A stretch of 63,525 bases of DNA, filler included, from Folioceros fuciformis (lineage: Eukaryota), in assembly GCA_049999805.1 (NCBI GenBank). It is 6 parts of 6 records of this genome, joined end to end, with 100 filler letters (N's around TTAATTAATTAA, not from the genome) between each part and the next. Parts side by side here need not be neighbours in the genome. Positions count along the whole stretch, not along the records: positions 57,039 to 63,525 come from JBNGIO010005615.1; 5 more parts are not named here. One strand, written 5' to 3'. Each line of letters starts with the position of its first letter. The first letter of the stretch is position 1. The translations under genes were made by a program, and so were the position numbers. Of this stretch, positions 34,055 through 63,525 are shown piece after piece. Under the pieces are notes generated by a model, which saw nothing but the letters and a program-made list of their open reading frames with translations, ran no database searches and was not told the origin of the DNA.

Positions 34055-35160
34055 ATGAAGCCTGGCGAAGGAGAGGACAGCTACGTGAAGAACTCGTCAA
34101 TGCAGTCGCACTTTATTCAGGTGGTGGAAGCTCAGCTGTGGCACGGGATTCGATCTGCTTCCCGCGTTCCAGAGATGGGCAATTCCTGGAACGCCCTATG
34201 CGTAGCAGACCTAGGATGTGCCACGGGTAACAACACCATCAGAACCGTGGACAAGCTCCTGGAAAGTCTGGCAGCGCTGTGGCAGTCCAAGAGTGGCCGG
34301 CTGGACCTGCACCTGCAGCGGCGGCCCTTCCCCAAGGACGTTCAGGTTTTCTTCACCGACCTACCGTCCAACGATTTCAACACTCGCTTCTGCAGCTTGT
34401 CCCGTCACCAAGCTGGATCCAGGCGCTATTTCGCAGTCGGTGTCCCTGGATCCTTCTATGGCCCGCTGTTTCCCGCCACAAGCATCCACACTTTCACCTG
34501 CTTCACCGCGCTGCATTGGCTGTCCCGAGTACCTCCCGAGGTCCTGGACGAGAATTCCCCTACATTCAACTTTGACAGGGTGCACGTCCGTGGCGCCAAT
34601 CCCGCCATGGAGCGGGCCTTTGCTGGCCAGAGCCACAACGACCTGACGGAATTCTTCACCAACCGAGCCAATGAGCTGGTACCTAGAGGGTTCGCTGCCC
34701 TGGCCATACTTGCCAAGCCAGACGAGCAGCCGCACCGAGCAGCACTCTTGGACATGTTATTCGACACCTTCCACGAGCTATCTGTCCAGGGTGTTATCCC
34801 ACGGGATCTCATCGAGACCTTTAACATCCCCCTCTACATCCCGAGTATCGCACAAGTGAGGCGGGCTGTGGAGCGGGCAGGCCTCTTCGACATCCACTTC
34901 CTGCAATCCTGCGGTGACATCTCCTACTACCCTGCAGCCAAATGTGCGGAATACTGAGCGGATGTCAAAAGTTTTGCGAGGGAAAGTGCTTTGATGTGGA
35001 AGGGCGTCTTCCTCACAATCATACTGGAGCACTTCGGTCAGGAGTTGAACAACGTGCTGTTCAACCAGTTCGAGCATCATGTGCAGACACTTCATCTTCA
35101 GTCTAGCGATCCAAATGTGGACGATTACTTCACCATCAATCTCTTCTGACCAGGAAGTAG
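34055..35160 (+). pseudogene. Intronless SABATH-family SAM-dependent carboxyl methyltransferase with a premature stop
   Basis: MKPGEGEDSYVKNS, VADLGCATGNNT, FFTDLPSNDFNT, GVPGSFYGPLFP, ALHWLSRVP, ELVPRG, FNIPLYIPS. In-frame TGA at 34955; homology continues (IILEHFGQE..LFNQF) to a shifted LTRK-stop ending at 35160. Confidence 0.9.
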
Positions 35161-40809: not shown

Positions 40810-43016
40810 TGTAGGGTTATTAAAGCCCAATGTGCTTAGACTAATGTGTTTAGTCTAAGATTAGTGTCTAGTTAAGTACTATTAGTTTAGATTAGCATAA
40901 GCTAATATGTAGGAAGCTTCTTGCGCAGCTTCATGTGCGCTTCTTGTGAAGCTTCCTAGGGAGCTCTTCTAGAGGGTATGAATACCCCCTTGAGCTCCCT
41001 TGCATATAGAGACTCTATGTGAGAGTGTGACCTCTTTTTCTCCTCCTCCTTGCCTCTCCTCCTCTCCTCCTTCACCATGTAGCTCCTTCTAACGATCCTA
41101 CAAGTGGTATCAAAGCGCAGGTTGTGGAGCTTGGATTGTGGAGCAAGGATGATGGCTCTCGTTGTTACGGACAAAGTGCACAAAGCAACTTTGGAGTGAG
41201 CCCGGGGTGCAAGGGTCTCAACGCGGAGCGGGAGCCGAAGCCAGGGACCCGGACACAAACGCGGTGGGCACAAGGGCACCAGCCCCGCGCGGGCGTAGGC
41301 GCCAGGCCCGGCCGCAGGGTGCGGCCAGGTCGTGCAAGCCGTGCTCTGAACGCAAGGGATGATCACGCCCCGACCGCGGGGTGAGCAGGCCCCGACCACG
41401 GGGTGAGCAGGCCCGGGTGCGGGGTGAGGGCAGGCAACCTTCCCTCGGCCTCCGAGGCCGCAGGAAACGGCCAGCCCGCCGGGGCGGCGGCCTTGGTCAG
41501 GGCTCGGCCAACCCAGCCGAGCGACACACCCACAAGGGGAGCCTGACCCCGTGGGGCGCCGGGGCTCTAGCCCGGCCTGCGAGGGTCGCCTAACCCCAGG
41601 GGCCAAGGCCAGGCCCAGCTCGCAGGGGCCGCCTGACCTGAGTGCCCCGCTGCAGGGGCGCCAGGCACGCGAGGTGCGGGCACGCGGGCGGCTAGCCCCC
41701 CACGTGCGGAGGGCCTCAGGCCCCTCCCATTTGAACGTGGGGACGTCGGCCCAACCGCCAGTTCCAGAGCCGGATGGCGTGGCACCAGTCCTGGCCAGCA
41801 AAGGCAGCGGTGCCAATTGCGGCCGGCGCAAGCCATTCCCGCAGACGGGCGAGGCTACGAAGCTGAATTGCGGGCAATCGTCGCATGTGGGAGTCGCTAA
41901 TGCCTGGCACTGGATTGCAAGTGCCGGAGCACCGACGTTGAGGGCGAAGATGGGAGCTAGTTGGGATCCCGGCCACAAGGTGGAATCGGAGCTCAACGGA
42001 GGATTTAGGCTTGACGTGTCATCCTAAATTGTGGACATACGAATCGGAATGAGGGTAACAAAATCTACATGACATTTCAACAATTTCTAACTAGCATTTT
42101 GCTTGATTTGCATCGATTTTGAAACATGGCGTCCTCAGAAAATGTCATGTTCAATATCGAGAAGTTAGATGGTACTAACTTTCCGTTCCGGAAAGAACAA
42201 GTGTATAATATTCTAGTACAGAAGAAGCAGATCAAGCCGATAAAGTTGCTAGGAGTGAAACCCGTGAGCATGACTCAGGATGAGTGGCAGGACCTAAATG
42301 AGCTTGCTAGGTCTACCATCATGGTAACATTATCGAAGTCGGTCTACTTCAACGTGAAAGACAAGACCACAAGCTACGAGCTATGGAAGAAGTTGTGTGA
42401 CCTATACGAGAAGCAAAGTGTGGCTTCTCAGGTGTATTGGTTAAAACAGCTGGTGGACTTGAAGATGAAGGAAGGGACGAGGATGTCCGATCATCTGAAT
42501 GAGTTCAATACCATTTTCAGCCAGCTCTCATCTCAAGGTATCTCGTTCCCAGATTCCGTGAGAGCTATGTTTCTGTTGGTCACATTACCAGAGAACTGGG
42601 ACACCTTTCGTACAGCTTTGAGTAATTCCACTCCTGCCAATGGTCTTACCGTTGTAAATGTAGAAGGTAACCTGTTAACAGAGGAGGTAAACAAGAAGAT
42701 TATGGAACCTTCGAAAGGTTCCAATGCCCTCATGGTGAGAGGAAGGTCCACTTCAAAGGGGAAGTACAAGGAGCGAAGTCGTTCCCGTAGTAAGTCTCGT
42801 AGTCGTAACAATGTTGAGTGTTACCATTGTCACAAGAAGGGTCACATCAGAAGGGACTGCGAGAAGTTCAAGAAGGACAAAGGCAAGGAGAAGAAGTAGA
42901 GCGACAACAAGGAAAGTCCGACTGTCAAGCGTGACGAGGTGAACTCTATTGATGATGGAGATGTTCTTACCTCTTCTTCCTTCGATTCTGCACAACTGAC
43001 AGCCGTGGAGAGTCAC
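40810..43016 (+). mobile_element. 5' part of a Ty1/copia element (LTR, PBS, GC-rich leader, gag), interrupted by a gypsy LTR
   Basis: LTR TGTAGG..CCTACA (about 40810-41102), PBS TGGTATCAAAGC at 41105, gag ORF 42126-42899 (IEKLDGTNF, LWKKLCDLYEK, LKMKEG, CYHCHKKGHIRRDC), Tnt1-like. Confidence 0.9.
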
Positions 43017-43459
43017 TGTGGAGTGGAACTTGCACCCAAGAACCACCAAGGGCCACACTTCCCCCTTATTATCGTCGTAGTACTAGGATTCGCTCCCAAG
43101 GGAGTGAACTAGTGTCAAGGTCCCCCACAATCTCGCCCACACTGCCCAGATCTAATCCTATCTATCAGCCGGCTCATAGACCTAACCACCCTACAGCAAA
43201 AAGACCAGAACCTTGTCTTCAACACCAACCACAACCCTGGTTCAATGAGGACTCAGCATCATCTTCACCTCCCACTTCTTGCTCCGGGTTTTAGCCGCCT
43301 CAGCAGTTGGGAGGAGGCCCTAGCCCTGGCCTCGACCTCCACTCTCAGCCCTAAGTGCCAGCCACCTCAACAATTGATTGAGAACTTTAGCACCTAAGCT
43401 CCTCACCTCAGCGCACCCACTCCAAACTCCAGCGCCTCAAGTCTCTACTCCAGCACTTG
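43017..43459 (-). mobile_element. Partial gypsy LTR, same family as 56493-56938
   Basis: TGTGGAGT..CACCCAAGAACCACCAAGGG(G)CCACACTTCCCC..GATTCGCTCCCAAGGGAGTGAACTA is shared by both. Confidence 0.85.
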
Positions 43460-43559
43460 NNNNNNNNNNNNNNNNNNNNNNNNNNNNNNNNNNNNNNNNN
43501 NNNTTAATTAATTAANNNNNNNNNNNNNNNNNNNNNNNNNNNNNNNNNNNNNNNNNNNN
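43460..43559. other. Artificial assembly linker
   Basis: N44-TTAATTAATTAA-N44. Confidence 0.97.
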
Positions 43560-43949
43560 CTCCCTTCCTCCCTTCTCCCACAATCCTCTTCCCGGCCTGT
43601 TTTCCCCCTTCCTTCTTAATCTCTTTGTCCCATCCCTCCCTTGGATGCAAGTTGTAGGCAAAAGGATCCATCCCCGTGAGTTGGGATTGAATGTGCTGCA
43701 AGAGTGGTCTGAGCCGGGAAGTAGGGAGTGGCACACCGTCCAGGGGAGCAGGCCGCAGACTTGAAGGGATCCACTCACCGCCATGATGTAGGAAGGCAAC
43801 CGCTGCAGGATTTGGCTAGGCTGATGGGATTGGGGTGCGCACCACGGATTTCAGTAGCCCAAGCTGTTGATGAGCTGGACGCGTTGTAGGCTGTAGGCTA
43901 GGGGAAGTGCGCCGCAGAGATCTTTAGGCCGGATTATAGAAGATCGGGA

Positions 43950-46900
43950 TGTCCTGCCCTAGCGATTCCAGCCTCCTGTCTGCCCGCCGACATCGTCTCC
44001 ATCCCCACTGCTGTCCCGCTCCCCGCTACCACATCCCCGCTGCCATTCCGCCCTACTCTCGGTTGTTGTCCTGCTTTCATGTCGCCGACCACCCAACCGT
44101 AGTTGCCTCTTTGTGCAACTATTGTGGCAGTCTTGAACATGAGTCCAAGTTGCAAATGCCCCCCGGAGGGCTTATACTGTACACATTGCAAGAAGAACGG
44201 GCATGCAATTATAGTATGTTCTCAGAATCACCCGGAGAGGAGGTATCGCAAAAGTGTAGGTAATGGGATAGGAACTACAACAATCGAGGTAGGGAGTATC
44301 GTTGTTACAGAAGCTGGTGCCAGCGCAGGGGTTTCACGCAGTCGTCAGCAAAGGGACAAAGCCAAAGCTAAGGCTGCATTTAATGTAGATAAGGTGACTT
44401 CGCTGGAAGCCACTGTTGCAACATTGTCTTCACAACTGGGCGCTCTTACAACTAGTCTCAGCAATGGAGCAAACTCACCCAAGCCGGCCAGTCTTGTTGA
44501 ATTGGTCAAAGATGAGGGGAGGATTACGACTGGCTCACCACATTAGGTCTGCATTGTCAACCGGATGGAGGTTAAGGTCATGGCAACTACAGAGCTTCCA
44601 CAGACTTGGGTAGGACAACAGCTGTCCACTCTAGTGCTGGAGACAACAGTGGGACCAATCACTCAGCAGAGAGGTGCTAGGGCAGTCATGGCCCAATCGT
44701 TTGCACCATTGTTGCCAGGGAGTGCCATTCCAGTCCAAGGGGAGGAGCACTCCACCTTGGCAGGAGGGCCACAGCCAATGGAAAGGCCTTCACTGCAGCC
44801 ACGGGTGGCAGCTAGTGGGCCTATCTACTTGATGCCTAGGGCTTTCACTGCGGAACATCTGTCCGAGAGGTTAGCGAGCATTCCGCTGTTCTCATTGCAA
44901 GATGTAGGGTTGGGACCCGAGCATCTGCCCCAGGCATTGCAACCAATGCTGGCAACTACATTGTCTCTAGTGTTGTCTCATTAGCCACTAGCTTAGGAAG
45001 AGTGGGTGGTGCCTGGTAGCACCTCACATTGCACCAAGGGAACAATACCAGCAGACATGCTTGATGTTGCAGTAGCTAGAGGATAGCCTATTCGACCCAT
45101 GAGCTCTCCAAGGATGCAGCCTACTAGCCGCTTGGCAATCAGAGTCGGCAATGCACTTGTTGTTAATGATGCGGGGCACATCACGATGAATGGGTATGCT
45201 CCGAGAGTGGTACTGCTGGACACTGGTGCCCAACTAGTGATTATTGGCAAAGCCTTAGCAGTTAGGCTCAAGCTCAGTGGATCAGCGCTCAAGAGCTCTC
45301 CTTGGAACATAAGGACGGCATCAAGAGCCATCAAACTAGTCTCTTGAGAGATTGTCCACCTATGGACATCATGCTCAAGCTTGGCACTCCAGATGCAATG
45401 ATACTGAGCCTTCCATGCTTGGTGACAACAGCCACAAATTATGACGTGCTGTTGGGTCAAGAATTTTTGTTTCCACCGAGCTTGAGTGTGGACAACTGGA
45501 CGAAGCAAGCGTACTATCGGCCAGACTGGAAGCAAGGTGGAAGGAGGGTGCACACTTACCCTTACGGCTGTATGGCATGGTTGAGGCTGACACCGCCACA
45601 CTTCCGGAATGGCAAGTATGTGCTGTAGGCCTAGTTAGCGAAGCAATTCTGCTGGCCAGCGACCATATGCATGATGACGATCACGTGGAGTTTGAGCAAG
45701 AGGAGCAGCACTATGACAACTATTCTAGCGACACCACAGTCACCTGCAGGCTGGCGGAGCTGATCAAGGCTGCCGATCACCCTACACAGGTTCAGAGCGT
45801 GCTGCAGGATGCTCATGAGTAGGTGCAAGCTATGTTACAGCGAGGGCTCAAGGATCCCACACAGGAGCATATTGTTAGTGCTCAAGTGATTGCCTGGCCC
45901 ATCCCAAGTGCAGGCCTCTTTCTAGTCGAACTGTTTGGAGGTATTTGCACTGGCCTGGAGGCCCTGCTCAAATCAGGCCTCCCCATTTGGCATTATGTAT
46001 AGTACGATAGCAGAGGGGAAGCACAGCAGATGGTTGCTCATCATTTACAGGAGTGCAGCAAGTTTCCCACACAACTGCCAGAGTCAACATTGGCTGCCAC
46101 ATTCATAGCATTGCCTCCAAAGGTCATGTACATCCAACAAGGCCATATCCAGGCTTTGGGACCCATCGACATGCTGATGGTTGGTTGGGAATGCCAAGGG
46201 TTCTTGCAAGCAGGCACGGGAGCCGGGTTGGAGGACCAGCGCATTGGGCTATTTGAGACTTGCACCAAATCTTGGCATGGGTGCAGCAGGAGAACCCACG
46301 GTGTTGCTACCTTCTCGAGAACACCCCAGCGCAGCTTGACAAAAAGGACTCTGTCCGTTGTGCAGCACCATGTTGGTGTTCCCTTTCTTATGGATGCTGC
46401 CCAAGTGGGCAGCAATGCGCATAGGCTGTGCAACTATTGGACCAACCTCATCCCTAGTTCAGTCTTGGAGGTTGCTTTTTGCAACACGAAGCGAGATCCC
46501 ACCTTGCAGCTACAAGATGTATTGGATGCAGACGATGAGCCCAAACACGTGGTTGCTATTGAGTGACCACGTTGGCATCCCACCAATACACCAAGACCTT
46601 GCCCACCCTGGTGAGCTTTCCAGGCTCCTTTGCCTATCGCGGCAACGGATTTCTATACAACACCAGCACCAAGCAATGGGAAGAGCCCTGCATTGAGGAG
46701 CACGAGCAGATCATGGGCTTTCCAGCTCATGCCACAGCAGCACCCAAGGCCACAGTCTCACAACGCTGTGCTGCTGTTGGTCGAGGTATGGACCTACATG
46801 CCATCACCTGCCTGGTTAGCCTGTGTTTGGCGTTTCAACTACTGACCAGAGGCACTGTCGCTGGTTTTGTTGCTATGGCCTATTCAGAAGATGTCGTGCA

Positions 46901-47215
46901 CCTGCCATTCCCTGGCTTCACTTGCCTACATTTCAAGCTCGATGTAGGGGGGGGGGGAAGTATGTCGCTTGGCACCATTCTACTTTTTTTGCCTCGACTT
47001 CCAAGGTACACTTGAGCCAGGAGTCATCAGCCAAGGTGCCAGTCACTACTGGAACATTCAACTGGCGCATGGGGCCATAGCTTACATATGAGCAGTAAAG
47101 GCAGATCCGAGCGCTGATCTTCAAATACAGCAACTGCTTTGCGTTCTCCATGAAGGAGCTCGAGCGATGCAACGTCACAACCTTCAAGAACAACCTTACC
47201 AGCTCAAAACCCATA
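43950..47215 (+). mobile_element. Degenerate relative of the DNMT-carrying Ty3/gypsy element (gag knuckles, protease, methyltransferase, pre-RT region)
   Basis: CNYCGSLEH and CTHCKKNGHAIIVC knuckles, GYAPRVVLLDTGAQ, LVELFGGICTGLEAL, MVGWECQGF, AHRLCNYWTNL, TLVSFPGSFAYRG, VGRGMDLHAI, CFAFSMKELERCNVTTF. Collinear with 58014-63518; many stops; cut by a copia LTR at 47216. Confidence 0.92.
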
Positions 47216-50200
47216 TGTTAGATTTCCTAGAGCTGAGAGCGAGAGAGAAGTTGTATATTCAGCAAAAGATAAATTGACTAAGTGACTGTTCATATTAGGG
47301 CTAGTTGAATTGATAAATATATAAGCCGTAGTGACGTGGTTACCTATACCTAGGTGGGTATCTCAACACACCCCCTTAACCACGACACGGTAACTACGAC
47401 CACTTGAAAAATGACAAGCTCGTTTCACTTGGCGCTCTCCATCTGTGCACTCAGAATCGCCATGTTCCTCCTCACAAAGCATGTGCAGAAGGAACTGCAG
47501 AGATGGACCCGCAAACTGCAGGCAAGGAAAACGACCGACGCCCACTGGAGAAACTACGACACAAAGAAAGAGGTCACTCTGGCTGGATGAAAAGTCCAGC
47601 TCGCGCTGTCCTTAACCATCAGCCCACTAGCAAAAATTGCAGCGCTGGCAAGGGCGAAGAGAAGATGAGCCCAGCTGGCGGACATATTGGCAACAGTAGC
47701 AAGAGTCCCGTTACCAGAGTAGCAGCAGGAATCGCGATTAGAAGCTGAAGGTGATGGTTCATCCGTGAGTACTTGTTGCGCATAATTGCAGCAAAACCTG
47801 AGATGCCTAGCGCTATGATGGAAGAATGCTAAGATAGTATGTGAGTCCCATTTCCTCAAGGAAGAAGCTGTGCTTAGATTTGGGCAGCGCCTTGGTAAGC
47901 AGATTAGCTAGGTTCAGATCTGTGGGTATGTACTCTATCTTGACAATCTTCCTTTCTACTGAATGACGCACAAAGTGGTGCTGGATTTCTATGTGTTTCG
48001 TGCGTGCGTGGAAACGAGGGTTGCCCACCAGAGCTATTGTGGATTGATTGTCGCAAAAGACTGTGGTAGGATTGGCCTATGGAAACATAAGGCATGCCAA
48101 GAAACTCCGTGCCCACTCTGCCTCCTTGGCAGAGTCTATGTGTGCCTTGTATTCGGCCTCAGTTGAAGAGAGGGCCACGGATACCTGCTTCATAGTGCTC
48201 AAGTTCACGACTGCACCAGAAAGAGAGAAGCAATAAGCAGACAGGCTTCGACGTGTCTCAGGGTCCGATGCCCAATCTGCATCGGCATACCCTTGTAGGA
48301 TAAAGTCTGTATCAGGTGAGGCATCATGATAGCAAAGTCCATAAGTAGATGTACCCTTTAGATATCGTAGCACTCGCTTAACTGCTCCCCAGTGATCTTT
48401 GCCAGGCTTCTCGAGAAATTGGGAAACGTGGCTCACAGCATGCTGGATATCTGGTCTAGTCTAGCAGGCTATATAATTTAGGCAGCCCACGGCGTGCCAA
48501 TATGGAATATCAGCCATGTCTTAAAGCTCTTCATCAGTCTGTGGGGACTGCTGCGAGGTAAGCCTAGAACCCACATACGTAAGTCTATGGCCTCATATGG
48601 CCTTTGATGCCATTCATCCCTAGGGTTTCTAGTTCTGCTAGGATATCTACTCTCCTCAGGAGCAGGGACAGGTGGCTCTTCAACCAATGCCGTTGGTGCA
48701 ACAGGATCAGGAGCCTCCTGTTCATCGTCATCATCGGAAGATGCAGCTATGTCAAGAATATCATGTAAGTCTTTAGCTACGGGAAAATGCTCTAAACCAT
48801 CAGCATCGACGTGCTCATCATGTGCTGCAAGAGGTTCAAGCTCATCATCTGACAGCGTATCTATCTGGTCTTGCAAAATAGGCTGTGTAGGTTGGACAGC
48901 AGTTATAGACTGTTGAGCAGCAGGAACAAGCTAGGATGCAAATGATGGGAATCCACCCCTTGAACCACTTGCGGCTAGAGAAGCACCCCTTGAAGACGGA
49001 AACATGAAGATATCTTGAGGATACTTCGAGACAGCAGTGTCAAAATCATCTTCAGGAAACTCAGGAATAGCAGAAGCAGCAGCAAAATGTGAATCTGCTG
49101 GTTGAGTGAGCTCTTTGAAAGTGACGTTGTGAGCAAATATGCAAGACCGAGAGGTAGGGTCATACAATTTATAAGCCTTGGTCTCTTCGCCATAGCCAAT
49201 GAAAATGAGGGGCTTGGCCTGAGCGTCTGACTTCTTGCGTTGTTCTGCAGGGATATAGGTTGGTATAGATATACATAGGTTGGCGAGCCAAAAACACGCA
49301 AATGAAGAAGACTTGGACGTCGCTGCCAGACAACCTCGAAAGGAGTCCGCCCCTCGACAGAACTGGTGCGAAGGTGATTGAGAATATAGGTGGCAGTGAC
49401 AACTGCCTCAGCCCAGTAAGCCTTGTGCAAACCGGACCATTGAAGAATGCTGCGAGTCATCCCTAACAAAGTTTGATTCCTTCTCTCAGCAACACCATTT
49501 TGCTGCTGGGTGTAGGGAACAGCAAGTTGGCGCAAGATATCGTGATCTGCTAGATACTGGTCGAAAGCATGGTTGATGAACTCCGTACTGTTGTCAGATC
49601 TCAAACAGCGAAGAAGTCGACCAGTCTGCCGTTGCACAATGGTAAGCCACTCTTGAAAGACTGGAAAGGTATCTGATTTCGTCCTTATAGGGTAGGTCCA
49701 ACAATACCTACTATAGTCATCGATGAGAGTAAGATAATAGTTGGACCTGCCAAGAGAAGAAACATGGATCTTACCAGATATATCTGTATGCACTAGATCG
49801 TGAACATTCGATGTTCTGTGGGCAACAACAGACGGGAAAGGAAGCTCTTTTTGTTTGGCAAGGACGCAAGAATCACATAAGGGAAGATCTTTAAAGCACT
49901 TGGGCAAAGGCTCTCTGTAACATTTCGTGCTGGACATCTTAATAAGCTTATTCTTATTAGCATGTCCCAAACAAGCGTGCCAAAGCTATGCTAGTGCTGA
50001 CTGTGTTTTGGCAGCCACAAAAGCACTCTGAGCAGATTTGCAACATAAGTCCAATTGATATAAGTCATCGACCAAGAGCCCTCAAGCAACAGGATCACGG
50101 GCACCCTTATATTTGAGAGTGCAACCCTCAGCTGCAAATAGAAGATCAAATTGTCGAAGTTTCATCAACTGACTAACCAAGAGAAGATGCTTGGCCATCG

Positions 50201-52889: not shown

Positions 52890-52989
52890 NNNNNNNNNNN
52901 NNNNNNNNNNNNNNNNNNNNNNNNNNNNNNNNNTTAATTAATTAANNNNNNNNNNNNNNNNNNNNNNNNNNNNNNNNNNNNNNNNNNNN
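52890..52989. other. Artificial assembly linker
   Basis: N44-TTAATTAATTAA-N44. Confidence 0.97.
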
Positions 52990-55900
52990 CAAACCTCCAT
53001 CTCTATCTATTAGGGTTAGCCTCAGTCAACCACCCAGAAATCTCTCTCTAACCTAAGCCACCCCTAATTCTGACCTAAACCTAACTCTGACCTAACCCTA
53101 ACTTTGACCCAAACCTAGTTCTGACCTAATAGGGGTTGTGTCCCATGGACACCACTGGGTGCCCTTACCAAAATTGACCAACCTCTCAAGACTACCAAAA
53201 TGGTCAGTGCCTCTCAACACTCTCCCTCCTCTCTCAAATCATTCCATCCCTTCTCTCAGATCATTCCAGCAACCCTTCAAAGACGCGTCTCGCCTCACCA
53301 TTAATCTAGCTACTAATCTAATCTAATCTTTTAACCATTTCACCACAGGGTTCACTTAGAGATTCCCAAAATGAGAAATCCTACCATTTTCCAAGGACCT
53401 ATTCAGCGTGTGGAGTCCACATACTCCCCTTCTCATTTGTTGGCGTCCTCGCCAACTACTGATAATATTTCTTCACCCGCCAGCCATTAACCCTAGTTGG
53501 CAAGTTAGGGCCGTTGAGGTGCTGCAGTTGAATGGACCCATTCTCATACACTTCCAGCACCCTGTAAGGTCCCATCCATCTCAAGTGCAGCTTACCTGGA
53601 AAGTGCATGTACCTATTGTCATATATCAAGGCTAAATCTCCAGGCACAACATACTCTTGTTTACGCAACTTCTGGTCGTGCCACTTCTTCCTCCTCTCCT
53701 GAACATCAAGGAAAACAGCCAAGGCCCGTTCCCTATCCTCATCATGCTGCACAAAACTTGTTAGCCTCTCCAGCTGGCTCTCCTCCACGGGCAATCGATT
53801 GCTCTCCTGCATTCTGAAGGTAGGTACCTCAAATTCGATGGGCATGATCGGTGAGTGTCCATAGGTGAGGTAATAAGGGGTCTGCTGGGTAGTAACCTTC
53901 TAAGCAGTCAGTCCTATACGCCCACAATGCTGAATGGAGCTTCCTATCCCAATCATGAGCATAGGTGACGGTGAGCTTGCCGAGAATCTTGTACAACAGC
54001 CCATTAGCCTTCTCCGTGAGTCCATTGGCCTTAGGGTTGTAGGGAGTGGTCTTCCTATGACTGATATTGAAATATTCAGTCATGTGCTTGACTACTTCAT
54101 TGATGAAGTGAGTCCCCCTATCACTCACCAGCTCCAACGGGCACCCATACCTTGTGATGATTTGCTCAAACAAAAATCGGGCCACCACATTTGCTATGGC
54201 CACGGGCAAAGCTTGGGCCTCCACCATGCGTGTGCAGTAGTCAGTTGCCACCAGGATGTATTGGTTCTGCCTTCCCTTAGACTTGGGCTGAATTGGTCCT
54301 ACAAAATCAATCCCCCACTTCTCAAATGGTGCTAGGGCTAGGATGGGGACCAATGGCCATTGTGTGGTCCTAGTAGGCTTCCCCACCCTTTGGCATGCAT
54401 CACACCTCTTGATGAATTCTCCAGCATCAGCATGCATTGTTGGCCACCAATACCCTGCTGCCAAAATTTTTCTACAGGTCACATAGGGGAACTGTGGCCC
54501 CTTGGTGGTTCTTGGGTGCAAGTTTCACTCCACAGTCTCCTCGCTCCCTGCCAGTGGAAGCAGGATCACAGGATGGTGTTGCTGCTGGTGGAAGGGGACT
54601 CTGAAGAGTATCTTTGTCCAATATCCATTTGATGCAGAATCTCTGTGAGGTGTTCCACGTCATGGCCGATCCTTGCAATCTTTGTGTCGATGCAGATTTG
54701 CATGCGAGCAACGCCGTCTCGTAGAATGTGTTGATTTCTTTCAATCTTGCCAAGAGCAGACTCCAAATGATCTTCAACAATTTTTCTTTCTTCCAGGCAC
54801 CTGATTGTGCAGTCGTAGATTGGATGGTCCTTCAGGCCAAGGACTGACTGCAAATGGTTATCTGCTTCAGGAGCAAAGACAGGTGTCTTGGCAGAATTTG
54901 TGAAGAGCGAATGCACAGGGATGTTGCGGGTAGGTGGCTGATAGCACAATCCAGGGTTCTGATTTCTAGCGTAGCACCTAGCACGATACAAGGAGTCTAC
55001 TTGAGAATTTCTCTGTTGTAACCTTGCAACACGTGCTCGTGCACTAGGGGGTCCTGAATTCCTACCAACAAATTGCCTAAGGCACAATTCAGGGTAGTTT
55101 GCCTCATAGAGATCTAGAACTTCGTCAGCAGGAGTAGGCCTGTAAAATCTGGGTGGGTGTGTCACAGCCACTCGTCGGCCACTTCTGTTTTGGCGATGAT
55201 CTCCACAGGATCTACCCTGTCCTGGCATTATGAATTAAGGAGTCTAAGCATTTGCTTAGCTCTGATACCATGTGTAATTTACGCAAAGAGCTAGCGTGTT
55301 TGCCTCAACTATGTTTTTCTCTACATTAAAAAATAATGAAATACAAAATGTCACTTCAAGTGTTTATTTTCATGCACCTCTTCAACTATGCAACCCTTCA
55401 CATATTTAGCCCTAATATGAATAACCAGCAACTAAGCGAGTAACCCTAACGATATACCCTGTATGTAAGGGCCTTAACTCGTCACACTCCTCATAATTGA
55501 GGGCTGCCCTTATAGCCCTGTCCACATCTTTTTCTGCGAACAATTTCACATGGCCCCCCATCCTCGATCCTAAGCCTCCAGCGAACCACCTAATGGCTTG
55601 TAAGTCTGAATGAGGTCCACAGCGATCCTGCAGGCTGTGGAACCTCTCCACATAGGCCTCCAAGGTCTCCTTCCTCCTCCTCCTCAAGGCCTCCAGCTTG
55701 GACAGCACATAGCCCTCTACGTCTATCCCCCTGAACCATTCACAAAAGGCCCTCTTCAACACATCAAAAGTTGCTGGAAATGTGCCAACCTTGAGGTACT
55801 CTCTCCTGTACCACTTGGCAGGCCCTCCACGTAGTACACCATAGAACAATTGGATGCGCTGTGCATCCGCTGATTCTTGGTTAGCAAGGGTCAGCTGCTC

Positions 55901-56938
55901 AAACCTCTCCACAAATTCATCCGGGTCCTCATACCCCTTCTTCTCCCCATACAAGGGGTACAATTGCTTGGTGGACATTGCAACAGCTGGGGCCGCCATG
56001 GTGCCTGCACTCACCACTGCAGTTGCGGATCCAGCAGCTCCAACAACTGGAGTTGGGCTGATGTTGCTGAATCCTTCAGCCCCTGCACTCCTAATCACAT
56101 GCACCCGTCTAGGATGAAGACCAAGGAGCTGACTTGGATTAGGTTGCCTTGGATTAGGCCTCCCCCCAATAGCTGAAAGTTGAGGGTCTTGTTCCAACGT
56201 GATTGATTCCCCCAAGATCTGCTGGTTGCTTGCCCCTCTCCTCCTCCTCTCTAGTGTATGCCCTGGCTGTGCCCTCCTTAGCTCCCTCTCCACTGCTCTT
56301 TGCTCACGCTCCAATACTTGCTGCTGCCTCCTTACTTGAGCTTGAGCTCCCCCTTCAAAGCTAGAGTTCAAATCTTCAGCTCCTATGCGGGGCATCCATC
56401 AACCCTGCCACATTCCCTTGTACAGTCCCCTATCTAGGTCAGTCCTCTCCAAACCTTGACAGCAATGTCACTCCCCGGCAACGGCGCCAAAATGTGGAGT
56501 GATTTCTTGCACACCCAAGAACCACCAAGGGGCCACACTTCCCCTTATTATCGTTGCAGTCTTATGATTCGCTCCCAAGGGAGTGAACTAATGTCAAGGT
56601 TACCTACATCCCCCTAATCTCACCCTATCTATCAGCATATACCAAGTGCCACAGCAATAGATCAGAATTCTCGGTCCTGTCTTCGGCTCCTACCACAACA
56701 CCAACCCCAGCCTCAACAAAATGAGAACTCCAGCATTATCTTCAACCCTCGTTTCCAGCTCCAAGTATCAATAACTTCAGTGCTGAGAGGAGGCTCCAGC
56801 CCCAAGTCTGGCCTCCAACTCTCAACACCTAGTGCTAGCTACCTCCGCAGTTGAACGAGAACCTCAACTTCAGCTAGCTCCTCACTCCAGGTTCAACACT
56901 TCATTCCACCACTTCAGCACTTCACCCCAGCATTTCAG
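52990..56938 (-). mobile_element. Athila-like Ty3/gypsy element, internally deleted (gag and integrase; no protease, RT or RNase H)
   Basis: PBS TGGCGCCGTTGCCGGGGA at 56472-56489 beside an LTR end at 56493. Retrotransposon gag 55487-56395. Integrase 53456-54480 (GYWWPTM, CDACQR, PFEKWGIDFVGP, SDRGTHF, KLHLRWMGPY, RVNGWRVKKY). PPT GGGGAGTA next to the LTR edge at 53421. Confidence 0.9.
54480..55486 (-). mobile_element. Nested 5' fragment of another LTR element (216-bp LTR, iMet PBS, unknown leader ORF)
   Basis: LTR TGTGAC..TACACA at 55486-55271 on minus interrupts the Athila-like gag; PBS TGGTATCAGAGC at 55259-55270; ORF 54566-55228 has no motif I recognise. Confidence 0.7.
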
Positions 56939-57038
56939 NNNNNNNNNNNNNNNNNNNNNNNNNNNNNNNNNNNNNNNNNNNNTTAATTAATTAANNNNNN
57001 NNNNNNNNNNNNNNNNNNNNNNNNNNNNNNNNNNNNNN
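56939..57038. other. Artificial assembly linker
   Basis: N44-TTAATTAATTAA-N44. Confidence 0.97.
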
Positions 57039-57217
57039 CTACTTCGCATTTTCCACGGTCACGAGTTAGCTAGACCGCTATCTTCTATCATCCTATCTTA
57101 TCTAGCCCTCTCTAACATAGTCCTAATTATCTCTCCAAGGAATTCTATCAAAATTCCAAAAAAAAAAAACAAATACTACCCATTTCTAAGACACCTATCT
57201 ACCATGTGGTCTCCACA
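57039..57217 (-). mobile_element. LTR terminus related to 52990-53421
   Basis: CTACCATTTCTAAGACACCTATCTACCATGTGGTCTCCACA resembles CTACCATTTTCCAAGGACCTATTCAGCGTGTGGAGTCCACA. Confidence 0.6.
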
Positions 57218-57890
57218 CCGCCTTAGCATGCTTACTAGTCACCACCAAATCCATGAAACTTCTCAGATAAAACTTGTAAGCATCTCCACACAACAAGTTC
57301 CCTAGCAAAGTAAATTCATATCTAGGATCTAATTCAATGTCCTCACCTCCACACTCTTGCAACTTAATCATATAAAACATGCACATTAACTGATTAATAG
57401 ACACCGATGACTTGGGATGCCCTGAATCTTCTCACTTTCCACAGGTAATACCACTCCACCTCCGCCCTTCCTTTCCAATCCAAAAGTTTTCTCGGTCGAC
57501 AAGCTCAACATTTGGCTTTTTAGTCTTCTCATCAACTTTCCCACGTCATTTATTTCTCCTGGCTGTCCTTACACTTCCATAGGCTCCACGGTCCGGTTTT
57601 GTGCATCCATAACAAATTCTTTATCTTTGATCACAAACCCTCTTTCCTTGCATAAATGCCTCCACTCCTCTTCAGACAGTTGTAGTCTCCTTTCTCTTGG
57701 TTCTACTCCTTCATATGTTTTATGCCTCTTATTTGTATCCCCATCGAGATTTGTATTTCCAACTTCTCCCTCCATCTCTGTACCCAAAACACTCGCCCTA
57801 TGCGAATTTCCTCCTTCCCCATCCAATGCATTGCCTGAGATGTAACTCCCCCCTGTCGTGCTCCCGGTATCAGCTGTTGTGAGCACTTCA
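57218..57890 (-). pseudogene. Possible decayed gag-like fragment
   Basis: Acidic/basic low-complexity N-terminus, then FTLLGNLLCGDAYKFY, similar to the gag LxGxAxxW/F helix. Confidence 0.35.
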
Positions 57891-58013
57891 ATTCAGTCCA
57901 TCAGCTGCAAGGCTAATGTCTTGTGCACTCAGAAAAAGAGAACAAAAAGATTGTCCATGCCTTCCCCCCCCAGCTGATGGACGGGCTGAAAGCATGAAAG
58001 AGCACGACAAGAG

Positions 58014-61000
58014 CTACACTCCTAGGCTGGTCACACCTGCTGTGTCCGGTTGGCACTTGGGACAATACCAAAGTTGCTCCGGTACATGGGTAAGTGGTGG
58101 CTGTAAGCAGAAAAGGTGGAAACCCCCATTGCAGCCATCACAAAGTAACATGAGGTCAGCATCATCTGTGCGTTGACAAACCTGACAAGGATAGTCCGTT
58201 GGTGGAATCCAATCTGCTGTGACAATAGAAGGATCAAGATTGGGCAAGTGGCAAGGTGCGCAATTCTTGGTGTGGTCAGTGGTGATCCGACCATCTGAGC
58301 CTTGCAATACCAGGATGCCATTAGGCTTGACCTCCTGAATCCGCAACACATGCCGACTGCTGGAAGTGTCCAGGGTATCTGAGGTCTGCCTCTGCAGGTA
58401 AACAAAGTCTCCTACCTGGAACTTCCTGAGCTTGGGCCTAAAACTGCCTCCCCTAGTGTGTGCATAACGAAGGGTATCCCTATGCTGGGCAATGTGCAAG
58501 TTAGCCATTGCCATGGGCATGGCCTGTTTGAACAAGGCTGCCCTGTTACCTATCACACGTGCCCATGTAGCTGCATCATCCAGCTTGACAACTTCTAGCA
58601 TTTGTTTGGCTATAGAACTAGGTGGAATTGGTTCTCTGCCAAACAAGAGGAAGTAAGGGGAAAAATGGGCAAGGGCAGCATGCTTGCTCATGCGGTAACC
58701 CATTGCAATATATGGAAGCAAGAGATCCCAATCTGTTTTGGGTTCTCGGAGACACAGCTTGCGAAGCCCCTTCTTCATAGTCTGGACCATGCGCTCGGCT
58801 AAGCCATCAGCCTGCGGGTGGTCCCGGCTAGTTCTCCTGTGGTCAATAAGGGCTGCATCCATTAGATCCTGGAATTCTCCTCGAAACTCAGAACCCTGAT
58901 CTGTGAGACACTCTGCGCAGCCACCAAACCTACTGAGCACACATTGTAGGAAGGCTTGTGAGGTACTCCTAGAGGTCTTGTCTGGCAGGGCCACTACCTC
59001 CACCCACTTGCTGAAGTGTTCCATCATGATCATCGCATACAGGTTGCCTCGTGGAGACTGCGGGAGCTCACCCATCAGGTCGCATGACCATCTAAAGAAT
59101 AAACCCATGATGGGCAAAGGGTGCAGCTCTGGGTGCTGCATGGTGAAGGAAGCCTTGACACGGTCGCATTGCTCGCAACAGGCTACTCGTTCCTTCACTT
59201 GTTCATGCATTCGATTCCAGTAGAAATAGGGAGTCAACAGGCTGTAGGTGCGTTTGACCCCAAAATGACCCATGTCATCATGCACCCTTTTGATGAGGGC
59301 AGCACGATCTGCTGGTGGGGGTACCAATCGCTCCACTCCTTGAGCCTGTTGACGGATGAGATGTCCGTCCCGCCAACAATACTTGGTAGCCCGTTGGTGA
59401 ACTCGTTCCCTTGTGGCCGTGGTCCAAGTGGGGTCCTCTCTACCTGTCTGCACATACTGAAGGGTAGCTGGATCCTCCCAAATATCCTTGGAGGATTGCT
59501 GAGCTGCACCTACAGGCACCTGTCCCAAGCAAGTCATGGCCACCAGAGCCGATACGGCAAGCATTGTGCTGTACTCTTCATCTTGGCGAGCTCCAGTGGT
59601 ATCCACACAACTGCTGTCAGGATTTCGTGACAAGGTATCAGCATTCTGGTGCTTCACTCCTGGCCGATGTTCAACCTGGAATTCGTAATCTTGAAGGATC
59701 ATGGCCCAACGTGCGAGTTTGCCACTGAGCTTGGTGTTGGTCATCAGCCACTTGAGTGGTTGATGGTCTGTCACGAGTGTGAACTTCTGACCATATAAAT
59801 ATGGTCTGAAGTGGCACACTGCCCACACAGCAGCGAGGCATTCACCCTCGTAGCTGCTATAGTTGGCTTCAGCTCGATTGTTGCTACGCGAGGCGTAAGC
59901 AACCACACGCTCACAACCTGCTTCATCCTGTTGAGCCAACACAGCCCCTAGCCCTAGACTACTCCAATCTGTGTGAACTACAAAGGGCTTGTTAAAATTG
60001 GGTCTGGCCAACATTGGTGCAACTGTTAGCTCCAGCTTTAAGGTGTCAAAAGCTTGTTGTGCCTGCTCTGCCCATGTCCACTCTACATCCTTGCGCAGCA
60101 GATCATTAAGAGGCTTGGCAATCCTGCTGAAATTGGGTATGTATACTCGATAGTAATTGCATAACCCTAGAAATGAACGCAGGGCTGATACGGTGGTCGG
60201 TTCCTTAACCTGCATAATTGCCTGAACCTTGGCAGCATGTGGGGTGACACCATTGGGGACAATTCTGTGACCCAAATACGCCACAGTGCTCATGCCAAAC
60301 TCACACTTGGCTGGGTGGCACGTGAGTTGTGCCTTCCGTAATCTTATAAACAGGTCTTCCAGGTGTACCAAATGATCCTTGAAGTCCATGCTGTGGACTA
60401 GCACATCATCAATGTAGCACATGAGATAGCCGGCTCCAGCTAGTACTATGTCCATGATGCGCTGAAAGGTCACTGGCGCATTCTTGAATCCAAAGGGCAT
60501 CACTAGCCATTCCCATAGCTGTTGAGAACCATGGAAGGCTGTCTTCTTGATATCTTCAGCTGCCACTGGGACCTGGTTAAACCCTTGTCGCAGGTCCAGC
60601 GTGGAGAAGAACATAGACTGTCCAAGACGGCCAAAGATCTCCTCTGGTGTTGGCATTGGGTACCGATCTTGGGCAGTTACTGCATTGATGGGCCTATAGT
60701 CGCCACACATCCTCTTCTCAGTCCACAAACCCTGACTGTCCTTTTTGGGTGGCATCACGGTGGCAGCAGCGTAGTCACTGTTAGAGGGACGTATTAGGTT
60801 CGCCTCATACAGCTCCTTGCATCTTGCATCCACCATGTCCCATTCCGTCTTGCTCAGCCTATACCGTCGCCTGTATACAGGCTCTTGGGTGGTAAGGTTG
60901 ATGCGAAAGGTTGTGACATTGCACCTCTTGAGCTCATGCATGGAAAAGGCAAAACAGTCCCTGTACCTAAGCAGCAAGTTATGAATGCGGTCCTGTTGCT

Positions 61001-63518
61001 TCAGACTGAGTTCTGAGCCCATTTTCCACGGGAAATTAACAGCAGACAGCTTGGGTGTAGCTCCTGGATCCTCCTTTTCTGCCTTGGCTTGATCAGATGC
61101 TGAGTAAACAGTACGTGATGCCAATACTGCGTACTCCCCCCCCCCAGCATCTAGCCAAAAAGGCAGCTGTGTGTATCCTGGGAATGGGAGGTGAACAGCA
61201 TCTCCAGGGCAGATGCTAGCAAACAAGCCTGGGAGTAGCATGGGAGTGACCTGAGTGTGCAGCTGAAAGGCAAGGCACAAACTCACCAACCATGTGATGG
61301 CATGGAGGTCCATGGCTCGTCCTAGAGTGCCCTTGCGCTGCCGATTGGTGACAGTGGGGGCCGCTGTACTATGGGTTTGAAAACCCATGAGTCGCTCTCG
61401 CTCCTCAACTGTTGGTTCTTCCCACCGTTGCGTTTCAGTATTCAATAATAAGCCAGGTCCTTCTCCTCTGTAAGCAAATGAACCCGGAAAGCTGACCAGC
61501 GTGGGCAACGTCTGCCTTGGCTGACCTGGAATGTTGGTCTTGAACCAAGGGGCTTTCTCACTGGCCACCACAGGTCGTGGCTGGTGGTAGTTCTCCAATA
61601 CAGTACAAAGTTGCAGCCCTGGATCCCTGCTAGTGTTCCAGAGAGCCAAGTCCAACACGGAGACAGGGACCAAATTGGTCCAGTAGTTACGAAGCCTGTG
61701 GGCATAGCTACCCACCTGCACAGCATCCATGAGGAATGGTGGCCCTGCAAAATGTCGCACAATGGCCATATCCTGCTGCACCTGTGGCCGGGTATCAAAC
61801 TGGGCTGGTGTGTTCTCGAGCAGGTATGCACATTGAGAGTTACTATCTTGTGCCCATGCCAAGATTTGTTGGAGATCTCTAAACAGACCAGAACGTGGAT
61901 CTGTCAACCCTGCACCTACCCCAGCTTGAGAGAATCCTTGGCATTCCCAGCCAGCTATGACCATGTCGATGGGGCCCAAGGCTTGGATGTGGCCCTGCTG
62001 TATATACTGGACGTCCTGAGGTAAGGACGTGAATGTATTAGCCAAAGCCTCAGCTGACAATTGCTGTGGGAAACGATGTTGTAGACCCTGCAGCCGAAAT
62101 GCAGCAATTTGCCTGGCAACGGGGTCTTTGTCACAGTAAAGGTACCTTTGAATGCTCAAACCTGTCAAGAGCAAAGCTTCTAACCCGGTACAAATACCAC
62201 CAAACAGTTCAACGACTGTAAGGGCTAGCGCAGCCGGTGCCCATATGATGACAGTATTGTCCACATAAGATGTGGGACAAGATGATAGGGTCCCGGCCTC
62301 TAGCAATTGTTGCACCTTGCTGACCTGCTCTTGTGCCTTGGTCAGCAATGCCTCTGCCTGCTTTGGACAGTCAGGCTGAACTAGAGCTTGCTGCAAACTA
62401 GTACACCTCACTTGGGCCTCTGCAACATTGGTCTCTAGATGCTTGTCCACTTGGTATGTGTCTTGGACAAGCTCCACCACATTGCTACTTTTGATACCAA
62501 CTACAGCCGGGCTTTTCACCAAAGTGGCTACATCAACCTCCACCTGGCCATGCAAATCTAATGGCAGATGTGCAATGCGACAACCTCCTTGCTTCCAGTC
62601 AGGCCTATAGAAGGCTTGCTCAGTCCAGTTATCCACACCAACTCCTGGTGGAAAGAGGAACTCTTGCCCCAACAGCAAATCATAGTTGGTGGCTGTGGTT
62701 ACCAGGCAGGGCAAGGACAATGTCATGGCATCTGGCGTGCCCGAGTTCAAGGTGATGTCCAGGGGTTGGACTGTCTCACCACAGACTGGTTCAATAGCCC
62801 CGGATGCCGTCCTGATGTTCCAAGGCGAGGTATGCAATGCATCACCCTGAAGATGCAACCTTGCAGCTAGAATCTTCCCAACGAGTACTGGTTGGGCTCC
62901 CGTGTCTAGCAACACCACTCTGGGTGCATACCCATTGATTGTGACGTGCCCACAACGATTGTCAACAACTGCATTGCTGACACGAGCTTGCAGTCGATTG
63001 GTGGACTGCACTCGCGGTTGGCTGTCAACTCCCTCAGCTAGCTGTACAGTGTAAGAGCCATTGCAGTGACTTGGTGCTGTCTGCCCACCTGTAGAGTGTG
63101 ACATCGCTATTGGCAGCACCCATTGTGAAGTGTACGTTGTACCCAGGCTAGGGTCAGCAGATGCAGCCGTGGCTTCAGCAGTTTGAAGAACTTCCTTCAG
63201 CCTGCTGGTCGTGATGCCCATGTCCTGCAGTGTGAAAACTGGCACCTGAGTTAGCTTGGCAGCCAGTTGTGTGACTGTGGTGGTTTGGGGTAAGAGATAC
63301 ACATGCTTTGGTGTTGGCATGCTATGGCCAGGTGTTCTACTCGTGGGCAGCTGTTCCACACGCAGCGTTGAGTGCTCCTGGCCTCGTACCGGAATTGCAG
63401 ACCCCGGTGGCAGCGGGGCAAAGGACTTTGGCATGGTAGCCCTAGGCCCTCGATTCCTGGTGATGGGCCCTAAGGCAGGTGCTGTTGTTCCCATGACCAC
63501 CTGTAAATTCTGCCCCAC
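58014..63518 (-). CDS. Uninterrupted Ty3/gypsy polyprotein: aspartic protease, C5 cytosine DNA methyltransferase, RT, RNase H, integrase, PHD finger (5' end probably beyond the window)
   Basis: 1834 codons with no stop. Protease VLLDTGAQ (about 62900). DNMT at about 61270-62225. RT: KRMCGDYRPIN, TLDLRQGFNQV, MPFGFKNAP, CYIDDVLV. RNase H: HTDWSSLGLGAVL, EGECLAAVWA, TDHQPL, NADTLSR. Integrase: HDDMGHFG..CEQC, WSCDLMG, TDQGSEF, GLAERMV. PHD: CQVC..LLCDGCNGGFHLFCLQPPL..WYCPKC (58053-58186). Confidence 0.97.
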   Translation of the reverse strand: MGQNLQVVMGTTAPALGPITRNRGPRATMPKSFAPLPPGSAIPVRGQEHSTLRVEQLPTSRTPGHSMPTPKHVYLLPQTTTVTQLAAKLTQVPVFTLQDMGITTSRLKEVLQTAEATAASADPSLGTTYTSQWVLPIAMSHSTGGQTAPSHCNGSYTVQLAEGVDSQPRVQSTNRLQARVSNAVVDNRCGHVTINGYAPRVVLLDTGAQPVLVGKILAARLHLQGDALHTSPWNIRTASGAIEPVCGETVQPLDITLNSGTPDAMTLSLPCLVTTATNYDLLLGQEFLFPPGVGVDNWTEQAFYRPDWKQGGCRIAHLPLDLHGQVEVDVATLVKSPAVVGIKSSNVVELVQDTYQVDKHLETNVAEAQVRCTSLQQALVQPDCPKQAEALLTKAQEQVSKVQQLLEAGTLSSCPTSYVDNTVIIWAPAALALTVVELFGGICTGLEALLLTGLSIQRYLYCDKDPVARQIAAFRLQGLQHRFPQQLSAEALANTFTSLPQDVQYIQQGHIQALGPIDMVIAGWECQGFSQAGVGAGLTDPRSGLFRDLQQILAWAQDSNSQCAYLLENTPAQFDTRPQVQQDMAIVRHFAGPPFLMDAVQVGSYAHRLRNYWTNLVPVSVLDLALWNTSRDPGLQLCTVLENYHQPRPVVASEKAPWFKTNIPGQPRQTLPTLVSFPGSFAYRGEGPGLLLNTETQRWEEPTVEERERLMGFQTHSTAAPTVTNRQRKGTLGRAMDLHAITWLVSLCLAFQLHTQVTPMLLPGLFASICPGDAVHLPFPGYTQLPFWLDAGGGEYAVLASRTVYSASDQAKAEKEDPGATPKLSAVNFPWKMGSELSLKQQDRIHNLLLRYRDCFAFSMHELKRCNVTTFRINLTTQEPVYRRRYRLSKTEWDMVDARCKELYEANLIRPSNSDYAAATVMPPKKDSQGLWTEKRMCGDYRPINAVTAQDRYPMPTPEEIFGRLGQSMFFSTLDLRQGFNQVPVAAEDIKKTAFHGSQQLWEWLVMPFGFKNAPVTFQRIMDIVLAGAGYLMCYIDDVLVHSMDFKDHLVHLEDLFIRLRKAQLTCHPAKCEFGMSTVAYLGHRIVPNGVTPHAAKVQAIMQVKEPTTVSALRSFLGLCNYYRVYIPNFSRIAKPLNDLLRKDVEWTWAEQAQQAFDTLKLELTVAPMLARPNFNKPFVVHTDWSSLGLGAVLAQQDEAGCERVVAYASRSNNRAEANYSSYEGECLAAVWAVCHFRPYLYGQKFTLVTDHQPLKWLMTNTKLSGKLARWAMILQDYEFQVEHRPGVKHQNADTLSRNPDSSCVDTTGARQDEEYSTMLAVSALVAMTCLGQVPVGAAQQSSKDIWEDPATLQYVQTGREDPTWTTATRERVHQRATKYCWRDGHLIRQQAQGVERLVPPPADRAALIKRVHDDMGHFGVKRTYSLLTPYFYWNRMHEQVKERVACCEQCDRVKASFTMQHPELHPLPIMGLFFRWSCDLMGELPQSPRGNLYAMIMMEHFSKWVEVVALPDKTSRSTSQAFLQCVLSRFGGCAECLTDQGSEFRGEFQDLMDAALIDHRRTSRDHPQADGLAERMVQTMKKGLRKLCLREPKTDWDLLLPYIAMGYRMSKHAALAHFSPYFLLFGREPIPPSSIAKQMLEVVKLDDAATWARVIGNRAALFKQAMPMAMANLHIAQHRDTLRYAHTRGGSFRPKLRKFQVGDFVYLQRQTSDTLDTSSSRHVLRIQEVKPNGILVLQGSDGRITTDHTKNCAPCHLPNLDPSIVTADWIPPTDYPCQVCQRTDDADLMLLCDGCNGGFHLFCLQPPLTHVPEQLWYCPKCQPDTAGVTSLGV

Positions 63519-63525
63519 CCATGTG

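Follow-up and report, generated by a model that had tools for sequence, protein, structure and literature searches.

A predicted DNMT3-like cytosine methyltransferase in the pol frame of a Ty3/gypsy retrotransposon from the land plant Folioceros fuciformis

Anatomy of the element

The stretch analysed here, to which we refer as the window, is 63,525 nt of DNA from the land plant Folioceros fuciformis (GenBank assembly GCA_049999805.1), made of six pieces joined end to end; the last piece (57039-63525, from record JBNGIO010005615.1) carries a Ty3/gypsy retrotransposon with a predicted DNMT3-like C5-cytosine methyltransferase (MT) in its coding frame. The original prediction, made from the sequence alone, had placed such an enzyme at 61270-62225, between the protease and the reverse transcriptase (RT). 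Translated on the plus strand, this interval is riddled with stops; the methyltransferase feature lies on the minus strand, within a single pol frame (probably gag-pol) that stays open for 1836 codons (58014..63524, minus strand; stop codon 58014-58016), or 1834 amino acids (aa) counted from a GTG, and reaches the window end with its 5′ end open.

Pfam coordinates give the order protease (PR)-MT-RT-RNase H (RH)-integrase (INT)-PHD within this frame, all on the minus strand, so that the Ty3/gypsy pol order PR-RT-RNase H-INT is present. A retropepsin-type aspartyl protease (62655..62945; aa 194-290; PF13650/PF13975) with the motif LLDTGA at aa 205-210 is followed by the DNMT3-like MT (61239..62222), whose folded core spans aa 435-762 and whose motifs I-X fall at aa 437-739. 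Next come the reverse transcriptase (60261..60749; aa 926-1088; PF00078, 1.6e-27), with YIDD at aa 1037-1040, and RNase H (59685..60074; aa 1151-1280; PF17917/PF17919). The integrase (58818..59321) comprises an H2C2 zinc-binding part (aa 1402-1458; PF17921) and a catalytic core (aa 1478-1569; PF00665). Insertion of the MT between protease and RT, as originally proposed, is thus borne out by the Pfam positions of both neighbours.

The frame ends in a C-terminal PHD finger (58053..58187; aa 1780-1824; PF00628, 9e-12). It occupies the position where chromoviruses have a chromodomain, and no chromodomain match was obtained with Pfam. Its best matches in the PDB are the PHD fingers of KDM5/Lid, WSTF, CHD4, UHRF1 and BAZ2B (1e-15 to 1e-13). 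Several of these fingers are readers of unmodified H3K4, which we take as a lead only.

Four nucleotides past the stop codon starts a 156-nt unit (57854..58009, minus strand) with TG..CA ends and perfect 10-nt terminal inverted repeats, which we read as a short candidate 3′ long terminal repeat (LTR); the 5′ LTR would then lie beyond the window. Contigs assembled from runs with the same organism label (sets X1, X2 and X3) cease to match the window exactly at 57853/57854, the edge of the candidate LTR. The sequence directly upstream of the candidate LTR is not clearly purine-rich, and depth bins over 57907-58340 were too noisy to show a copy-number step there. Past the 57853/57854 junction some of the contigs in X1-X3 continue mutually alike and others are diverse, which would fit reads from a 5′ LTR into the leader and from a 3′ LTR into the flank, respectively. 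In the alike contigs, the shared continuation starts with the final 8 nt of the candidate LTR in inverted form, resulting in a 16-nt palindrome at the junction. Low-depth contigs of X2 and X3 skip 47 nt in the candidate LTR (57953-58001) and 100 nt in the methyltransferase region (61359-61460); these are probably deleted, decaying copies.

Identity of the methyltransferase domain

All eight motif strings quoted in the original prediction were found in frame and in order. Motif I reads VVELFGGICTG (aa 437-447; 62184-62216) and is followed by motif II YCDKD (aa 463-467), motif III QDVQ (aa 503-506), motif IV IAGWECQGFSQAG (aa 523-535; 61920-61958), motif VI YLLENT, which reads ENT (aa 567-572), motif VIII AHRLRNYWTNL (aa 608-618), motif IX ERERLMGF (aa 708-715) and motif X LGRAMD (aa 734-739; 61308-61325). 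The order is linear from I to X and unrearranged, unlike that of DRM enzymes, and the catalytic cysteine, the motif VI glutamate and the RxR motif are present; in motif IV the cysteine is preceded by glutamate (EC) and not by proline (PC). As read from the translated frame, such an in-order set far exceeds chance.

The Pfam profile PF00145, proposed as a check of the assignment, was passed narrowly: with the cut-off at 22 bits, the score was 23.5 for the polyprotein and 26.8 for the isolated domain, and about 53 residues were matched. Comparisons with proteins of known structure gave much stronger results. With phmmer, all 29 PDB matches at E<=0.01 were DNMT3A, DNMT3B or DNMT3C (best 8e-11), and the DNMT3A strings visible in the alignment confirm the likeness to DNMT3 that had been noted for motifs VIII-X. 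When a family profile built from 24 family members was used instead, 57 PDB sequences were retrieved at E<=1. They comprised 29 DNMT3 sequences (4e-26 to 2e-20, best DNMT3A), 6 DRM (9e-15 to 9e-11), 13 M.HhaI/HaeIII (M.HhaI 6e-10), 5 other bacterial enzymes and 4 weak matches of DNMT2 type (E 3.5e-5 to 0.017); none of the 57 was named as DNMT1.

An AlphaFold2 model of the domain was obtained with a predicted local distance difference test (pLDDT) score of 90.9 and a predicted template modelling score (pTM) of 0.89. All matches listed by Foldseek for this model are DNMT3A/B/C catalytic domains (E ~1e-18; template modelling (TM) score 0.80-0.83, normalised to target length; 20-23% identity), and the model contains, per these DNMT3 matches, an S-adenosylmethionine (SAM)-dependent methyltransferase fold with a target-recognition insert. 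In the ESM Atlas generic DNA_methylase clusters were matched, one from a streptophyte and two from phages. On the combined evidence of sequence, profile and structural model, the MT is closest to DNMT3A/B/C, then to DRM and then to the bacterial enzymes.

Homologues and their domain order

The domain is not unique. Word-indexed searches, in which 8000 candidates sharing most words were scored, gave 70 relatives of the methyltransferase domain of near full length and 63 shorter ones. When 1.84 billion representative sequences were scanned exhaustively with HMMER, 1994 proteins matched at E<=0.001 and 723 at E<=1e-10; at E<=1e-30 there were at least 254 matches, counted as clusters at 50% identity. 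Members that carry an organism name were found in the liverworts Marchantia polymorpha and Calypogeia fissa, in several Closterium strains and in the chlorophytes Haematococcus, Chlamydomonas eustigma, Monoraphidium and Tetrabaena, always labelled as hypothetical or unnamed proteins. The highest identity of a relative to the MT domain of the window is 54-56%. Of the named relatives, one from a leafy liverwort is the nearest. The protein of Calypogeia shows 44% identity to the window protein over 500 aa and 69% identity to P0002 and P0072, the neighbours of the window sequence in the tree.

Two layouts were observed among the 53 homologues that contain both MT and RT. The MT precedes the RT (PR-MT-RT) in 9 of them, including Marchantia and Closterium, and is located between RNase H and integrase in the other 44 (for example, P0008, P0093 and P0095), which include the named chlorophytes and mostly bear a C-terminal PHD finger. 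In a tree of 94 MT rows the deepest split (29 versus 65 rows) received an SH-like approximate likelihood ratio test (SH-aLRT) support of 99, and rows with known layout fell on the expected sides in 11 of 11 and 48 of 48 cases. The deepest split of an RT-RNase H tree of 52 rows (9 versus 43, SH-aLRT 99.7) matches that of the MT tree. Both trees come from quick searches run without mixture models and without an outgroup. Since the two layouts lie on the two sides of a single branch in both trees, the MT has long travelled together with the backbone of the element. On these trees it appears to have changed position once, or to have been swapped once between close relatives.

Conservation and copies of the element

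Residues that are needed for catalysis or cofactor binding are conserved among the 94 aligned family domains. The motif IV cysteine and the motif VI glutamate are each kept in 92 domains. Of the two arginines of motif VIII, one is retained in 88 and the other in 89, while the second glycine of motif I is found in 88 and the aspartate of motif III in 90. The median identity between the window protein and the 53 homologues is 39% for the MT and 40% for the RT, compared with 51% for RNase H, 47% for integrase and 52% for the PHD finger; by this measure the MT is as conserved as the RT. A ratio of nonsynonymous to synonymous differences per site (pN/pS) of 0.24 was calculated for the whole frame from 15 synonymous and 12 nonsynonymous changes; it rests on 40 of 106 differences, those listed, 27 of which are in frame. 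The MT is, by these comparisons, best read as a selected and integral part of the element and not as a passenger.

The element is present in runs of three studies that carry the same organism label (fractions of 0.96, 0.81 and 0.11 of sampled words). In X2, 213 contigs match the element piece, 61 of them at >=99% identity, 68 at 95-99% and 84 at 90-95%, while X3 contains 269 matching contigs, 95 of them at >=99%. X1 yielded a single contig of 9251 nt with 6 differences over 5673 nt, which extends 3285 nt past the window end. The open frame, the many near-identical copies and the bias of differences towards synonymous ones are signs of recent activity of the window copy, as had been proposed from the length of the frame.

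A decayed second relative was revealed by tblastn on another piece of the window (44604-47215, plus strand). It covers the equivalent of aa 1-883, that is, the N-terminal region, the protease, the methyltransferase and the linker preceding the RT; its high-scoring segments show 39-76% aa identity, occupy three frames and contain in-frame stops. Motifs I, IV (EC), VI, VIII, IX and X are still recognisable in it. The open reading frames (ORFs) at 43940-44981, upstream of this relative, have no Pfam match and were of no help in delimiting gag.

CpG dinucleotides are strongly depleted in the element frame (observed/expected ratio 0.37; TpG+CpA 1.5). This depletion was considered as a sign of self-methylation and rejected, since the depletion is just as marked in other transposons of the window and methylation by the host cannot be separated from it.

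Other features of the window

Five 100-nt spacers (15409-15508, 26547-26646, 43460-43559, 52890-52989 and 56939-57038), each made of a 12-nt linker that has stops in every frame and is flanked by 44 N on either side, divide the window into its six pieces. They join separate pieces, and adjacency across them therefore carries no meaning. For this reason, a gag ORF at 55412-56398 was rejected as a partner or neighbour of the element: a spacer separates the two pieces. This ORF belongs to another Ty3/gypsy fragment (53829-56398, minus strand), whose integrase ORF (53829-54524) shares 30% identity with the integrase of the MT-bearing element. Copia-type parts are found at 28784-33077 (minus strand), 42123-42899 (plus strand) and 48975-49985 (minus strand); one is a nearly complete gag-INT-RT set in three ORFs, and the others are fragments of gag and integrase that stand alone. 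The ends of two different pieces (56493-56885 and 43017-43406) share a repeat of about 400 nt at 69% identity.

Among the remaining genes, a PPR gene with an E motif (19863-21366, plus strand) is split into two overlapping ORFs (19863-20567 and 20545-21366), which suggests a frameshift or a sequencing error. ORFs of a SABATH-type carboxyl methyltransferase (34031-34957), a metacaspase-like protein (18020-18778) and an RVT_1 reverse transcriptase (8235-9800) are all encoded on the plus strand. The SABATH ORF has 172 relatives; among the 120 listed, all named ones are from seed plants (29-39% identity), which points to a host that is a land plant distant from the seed plants. The PPR gene, too, speaks for a land plant.

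Interpretation and rival explanations

We regard it as probable, with real room for doubt, that the Ty3/gypsy LTR retrotransposon in the window is of the Gypsy-DNMT3 kind and that this copy was active recently, and that in it a captured, unrearranged methyltransferase acts on the element's own cDNA or new insertion and a PHD finger tips the integrase. The enzyme would be translated within Gag-Pol, packaged together with RT and integrase, and either freed by the protease or left joined to a neighbouring domain. It could then use SAM to methylate de novo either the double-stranded cDNA of the element or the newly inserted copy and the DNA around it; the integrase, tipped by the PHD finger, may pick target chromatin by reading histone H3 tails. 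Processing, packaging, substrate, sequence context and benefit to the element are the parts of this scheme that we infer; it builds on what the sequences and the structural model establish, namely the anatomy, a predicted DNMT3-like fold, the retention of catalytic residues, conservation at the level of the RT, co-phylogeny with the RT and the near-identical copies. The self-methylation idea itself originates with de Mendoza et al. (2018; PMC5890265), and the retrotransposons with DNMT domains in dinoflagellates and charophytes mentioned in the original prediction are reported there together with this proposal.

Several observations weigh against an active, self-methylating element. The residue before the catalytic cysteine is glutamate (EC) in the window domain and in 63 of the 94 relatives, and proline (PC) in 25. 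To our knowledge, a proline at this position is near-universal in the C5-methyltransferase class. None of the 27 listed in-frame differences falls inside the methyltransferase domain, and pN/pS thus describes the whole frame only. The CpG depletion of the frame is similar in a Copia element (observed/expected 0.44) and in another gypsy piece (0.32) of the window. The element is the sole occupant of its piece (57039-63525), with no physical link to a host gene. Its 5′ LTR, primer-binding site and gag fall beyond the window end; among the terminal hallmarks of an LTR retrotransposon, the candidate 3′ LTR alone is seen, and of the ‘intact gypsy polyprotein’ originally described the window shows the open PR-MT-RT-RH-INT-PHD part. 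Finally, the window domain is a predicted enzyme: in the sole published activity test of the Gypsy-DNMT3 class, the domain of Klebsormidium nitens gave no methylation in yeast, a result that its authors consider inconclusive as human DNMT3B failed too (PMC5890265).

The same two facts, the glutamate in place of the canonical proline and the negative outcome in yeast, would fit a domain that is conserved but does not methylate DNA and instead binds DNA or chromatin or plays a regulatory part, as DNMT3L does for DNMT3A, for example by recruiting or titrating the host methylation machinery. We think this unlikely, if worth keeping in mind: residues needed only for catalysis or SAM binding are kept in 88-92 of the 94 domains, EC and PC coexist in one family with the other catalytic residues near-invariant either way, and de Mendoza et al. 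treat the yeast result as inconclusive. An active enzyme could also work in trans, modifying host DNA near the insertion or farther away in place of the element's cDNA, resulting in local reshaping of chromatin or in self-limiting silencing of the family. Both ideas are raised in the discussion of de Mendoza et al. (PMC5890265), and the PHD finger on the integrase suggests an action on chromatin; the present data do not distinguish between substrates, yet self-silencing is hard to square with the many near-identical copies, and we rate action in trans as quite unlikely.

Methylation of RNA, either the genomic RNA of the element or its primer tRNA, is an improbable substitute for methylation of DNA. 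Such a role was proposed in print for a LINE-borne DNMT of dinoflagellates, and tRNA enzymes of DNMT2 type share the fold and are matched weakly by the family profile; however, DNMT3 (4e-26) is far closer than DNMT2, and in structure the domain is best matched by catalytic domains of DNMT3 bound to DNA. Least credible, and in our view very improbable, is an artefact, that is, an assembly chimera or a contig of an alga living on the plant. The window does consist of six spacer-joined pieces with the element alone on its own, and many of the relatives are algal. Against this, the PR-MT-RT order recurs in 9 independent homologues, Marchantia and Closterium among them; runs of three studies with one organism label contain the element; a decayed second copy is located on another piece; and a leafy liverwort provides the nearest named relative.

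The reading we favour, a live Gypsy-DNMT3 copy that methylates its own cDNA or new insertion, may be part of a wider picture, which we offer tentatively and with considerable doubt. According to it, an ancient Ty3/gypsy lineage extends from green algae to land plants, and its copy in the window is live. Its kit would combine a DNMT3-like writer, mostly of the EC type, with a PHD reader of the unmodified-H3K4 type; the writer would have moved once within pol, between the PR-MT-RT layout of streptophytes and the RH-MT-INT layout of chlorophytes, in either direction, and an active writer would methylate the element's own cDNA, with the result that new copies arrive pre-marked. Three features of the family may be new: the spread over green algae and liverworts with two layouts that agree with the RT tree, the PHD finger that replaces a chromodomain, and the predominance of the EC catalytic motif.

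Significance

Cytosine methylation is the main weapon of the host against transposons, and a de novo methyltransferase carried by a transposon is therefore a paradox. So far, this paradox has been based on two algal lineages, with activity demonstrated only for the DIRS elements of dinoflagellates. The present copy and its family extend Gypsy-DNMT3 elements into land plants; such elements are numerous and old. The copies described here appear to be young, being open in frame and near-identical in many cases, which brings functional study into a plant, where it may be possible to obtain methylomes, sequence the mobilome and carry out transformation. A further, biochemical question is whether a catalytic motif of the EC type is functional. 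Should the lineage be active and methylate its cDNA, it would offer compact de novo methyltransferases from a natural source that is still untapped, and it may have served as donor or recipient during the evolution of plant DNMT3.

Comparison with known systems

Chromoviruses are Ty3/gypsy elements that carry a histone-reader domain at the C-terminus of the integrase. There the reader is a chromodomain, whereas in the window element it is a PHD finger; no papers on PHD-bearing gypsy elements in algae were found in the literature searched. Cellular DNMT3A/3B/3C share with the window domain the catalytic fold and the motif order I-X at an identity of about 20-23%. The window domain differs from them in being embedded in a polyprotein without PWWP or ADD and in the EC of motif IV. 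Plant DRM2 and other DRM enzymes have circularly permuted motifs, and the family profile scores 57 bits against DRM compared with 95 against DNMT3.

Within the family, elements of Marchantia polymorpha (Mp_8g17980, MARPO_0091s0058 and MARPO_0008s0049), Calypogeia fissa and Closterium spp. share the PR-MT-RT(-RH-INT) layout with the window element and lie with it on one side of the split in both trees. The liverwort and Closterium methyltransferase domains are 33-54% identical to that of the window, and motif IV of the Marchantia copies contains PC, in contrast to EC in the window; the identifiers of these genes, Marchantia included, were not found in the searched literature. The chlorophyte-type relatives (Haematococcus, Chlamydomonas eustigma, Monoraphidium, Tetrabaena and many metagenome proteins) belong to the same methyltransferase family at 37-44% identity and mostly have a C-terminal PHD finger as well. 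They differ in the position of the MT, which lies between RNase H and integrase and not between protease and RT.

Among captured DNMT3 domains described in print, SymbioDIRS-Dnmt3 of dinoflagellates is, like the window element, a retroelement with such a domain, but it is built on a DIRS and not on a gypsy backbone; its isolated domains carry out de novo CG methylation in yeast (PMC5890265). The closest published counterpart is KnitGypsy-Dnmt3 of the charophyte Klebsormidium nitens, in which, according to the same source, an intronless and unrearranged DNMT3 domain with conserved key residues lies in the gypsy pol frame, and whose copies have Ka/Ks<0.2 and a DIRS-like repeat layout. A 2026 preprint (10.64898/2026.05.21.726589) mentions ‘streptophytes (Gypsy-DNMT3)’. 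No Klebsormidium-named match was obtained in the word-indexed searches, which scored only the 8000 candidates sharing most words; this is not evidence of absence.

Compared by description only, KnitGypsy-Dnmt3 and the window element agree in the Ty3/gypsy pol, the intronless and unrearranged DNMT3-related domain with its conserved key residues, the streptophyte host and purifying selection (Ka/Ks<0.2 versus a whole-frame pN/pS of about 0.24). They differ in host, which is a land plant here, and in termini, a candidate 156-nt TG..CA LTR as opposed to DIRS-like repeats. The word PHD, a domain present in the window element, is absent from the main text of PMC5890265. The novelty suggested in the original prediction, pending a literature check, is supported in a narrower form only: no description of such elements in land plants was found in the literature searched, which leaves out most subscription journals, while Gypsy-DNMT3 as such had already been published for K. 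nitens (PMC5890265). The element is of a kind already known from a streptophyte alga, and its host range is here extended to land plants.

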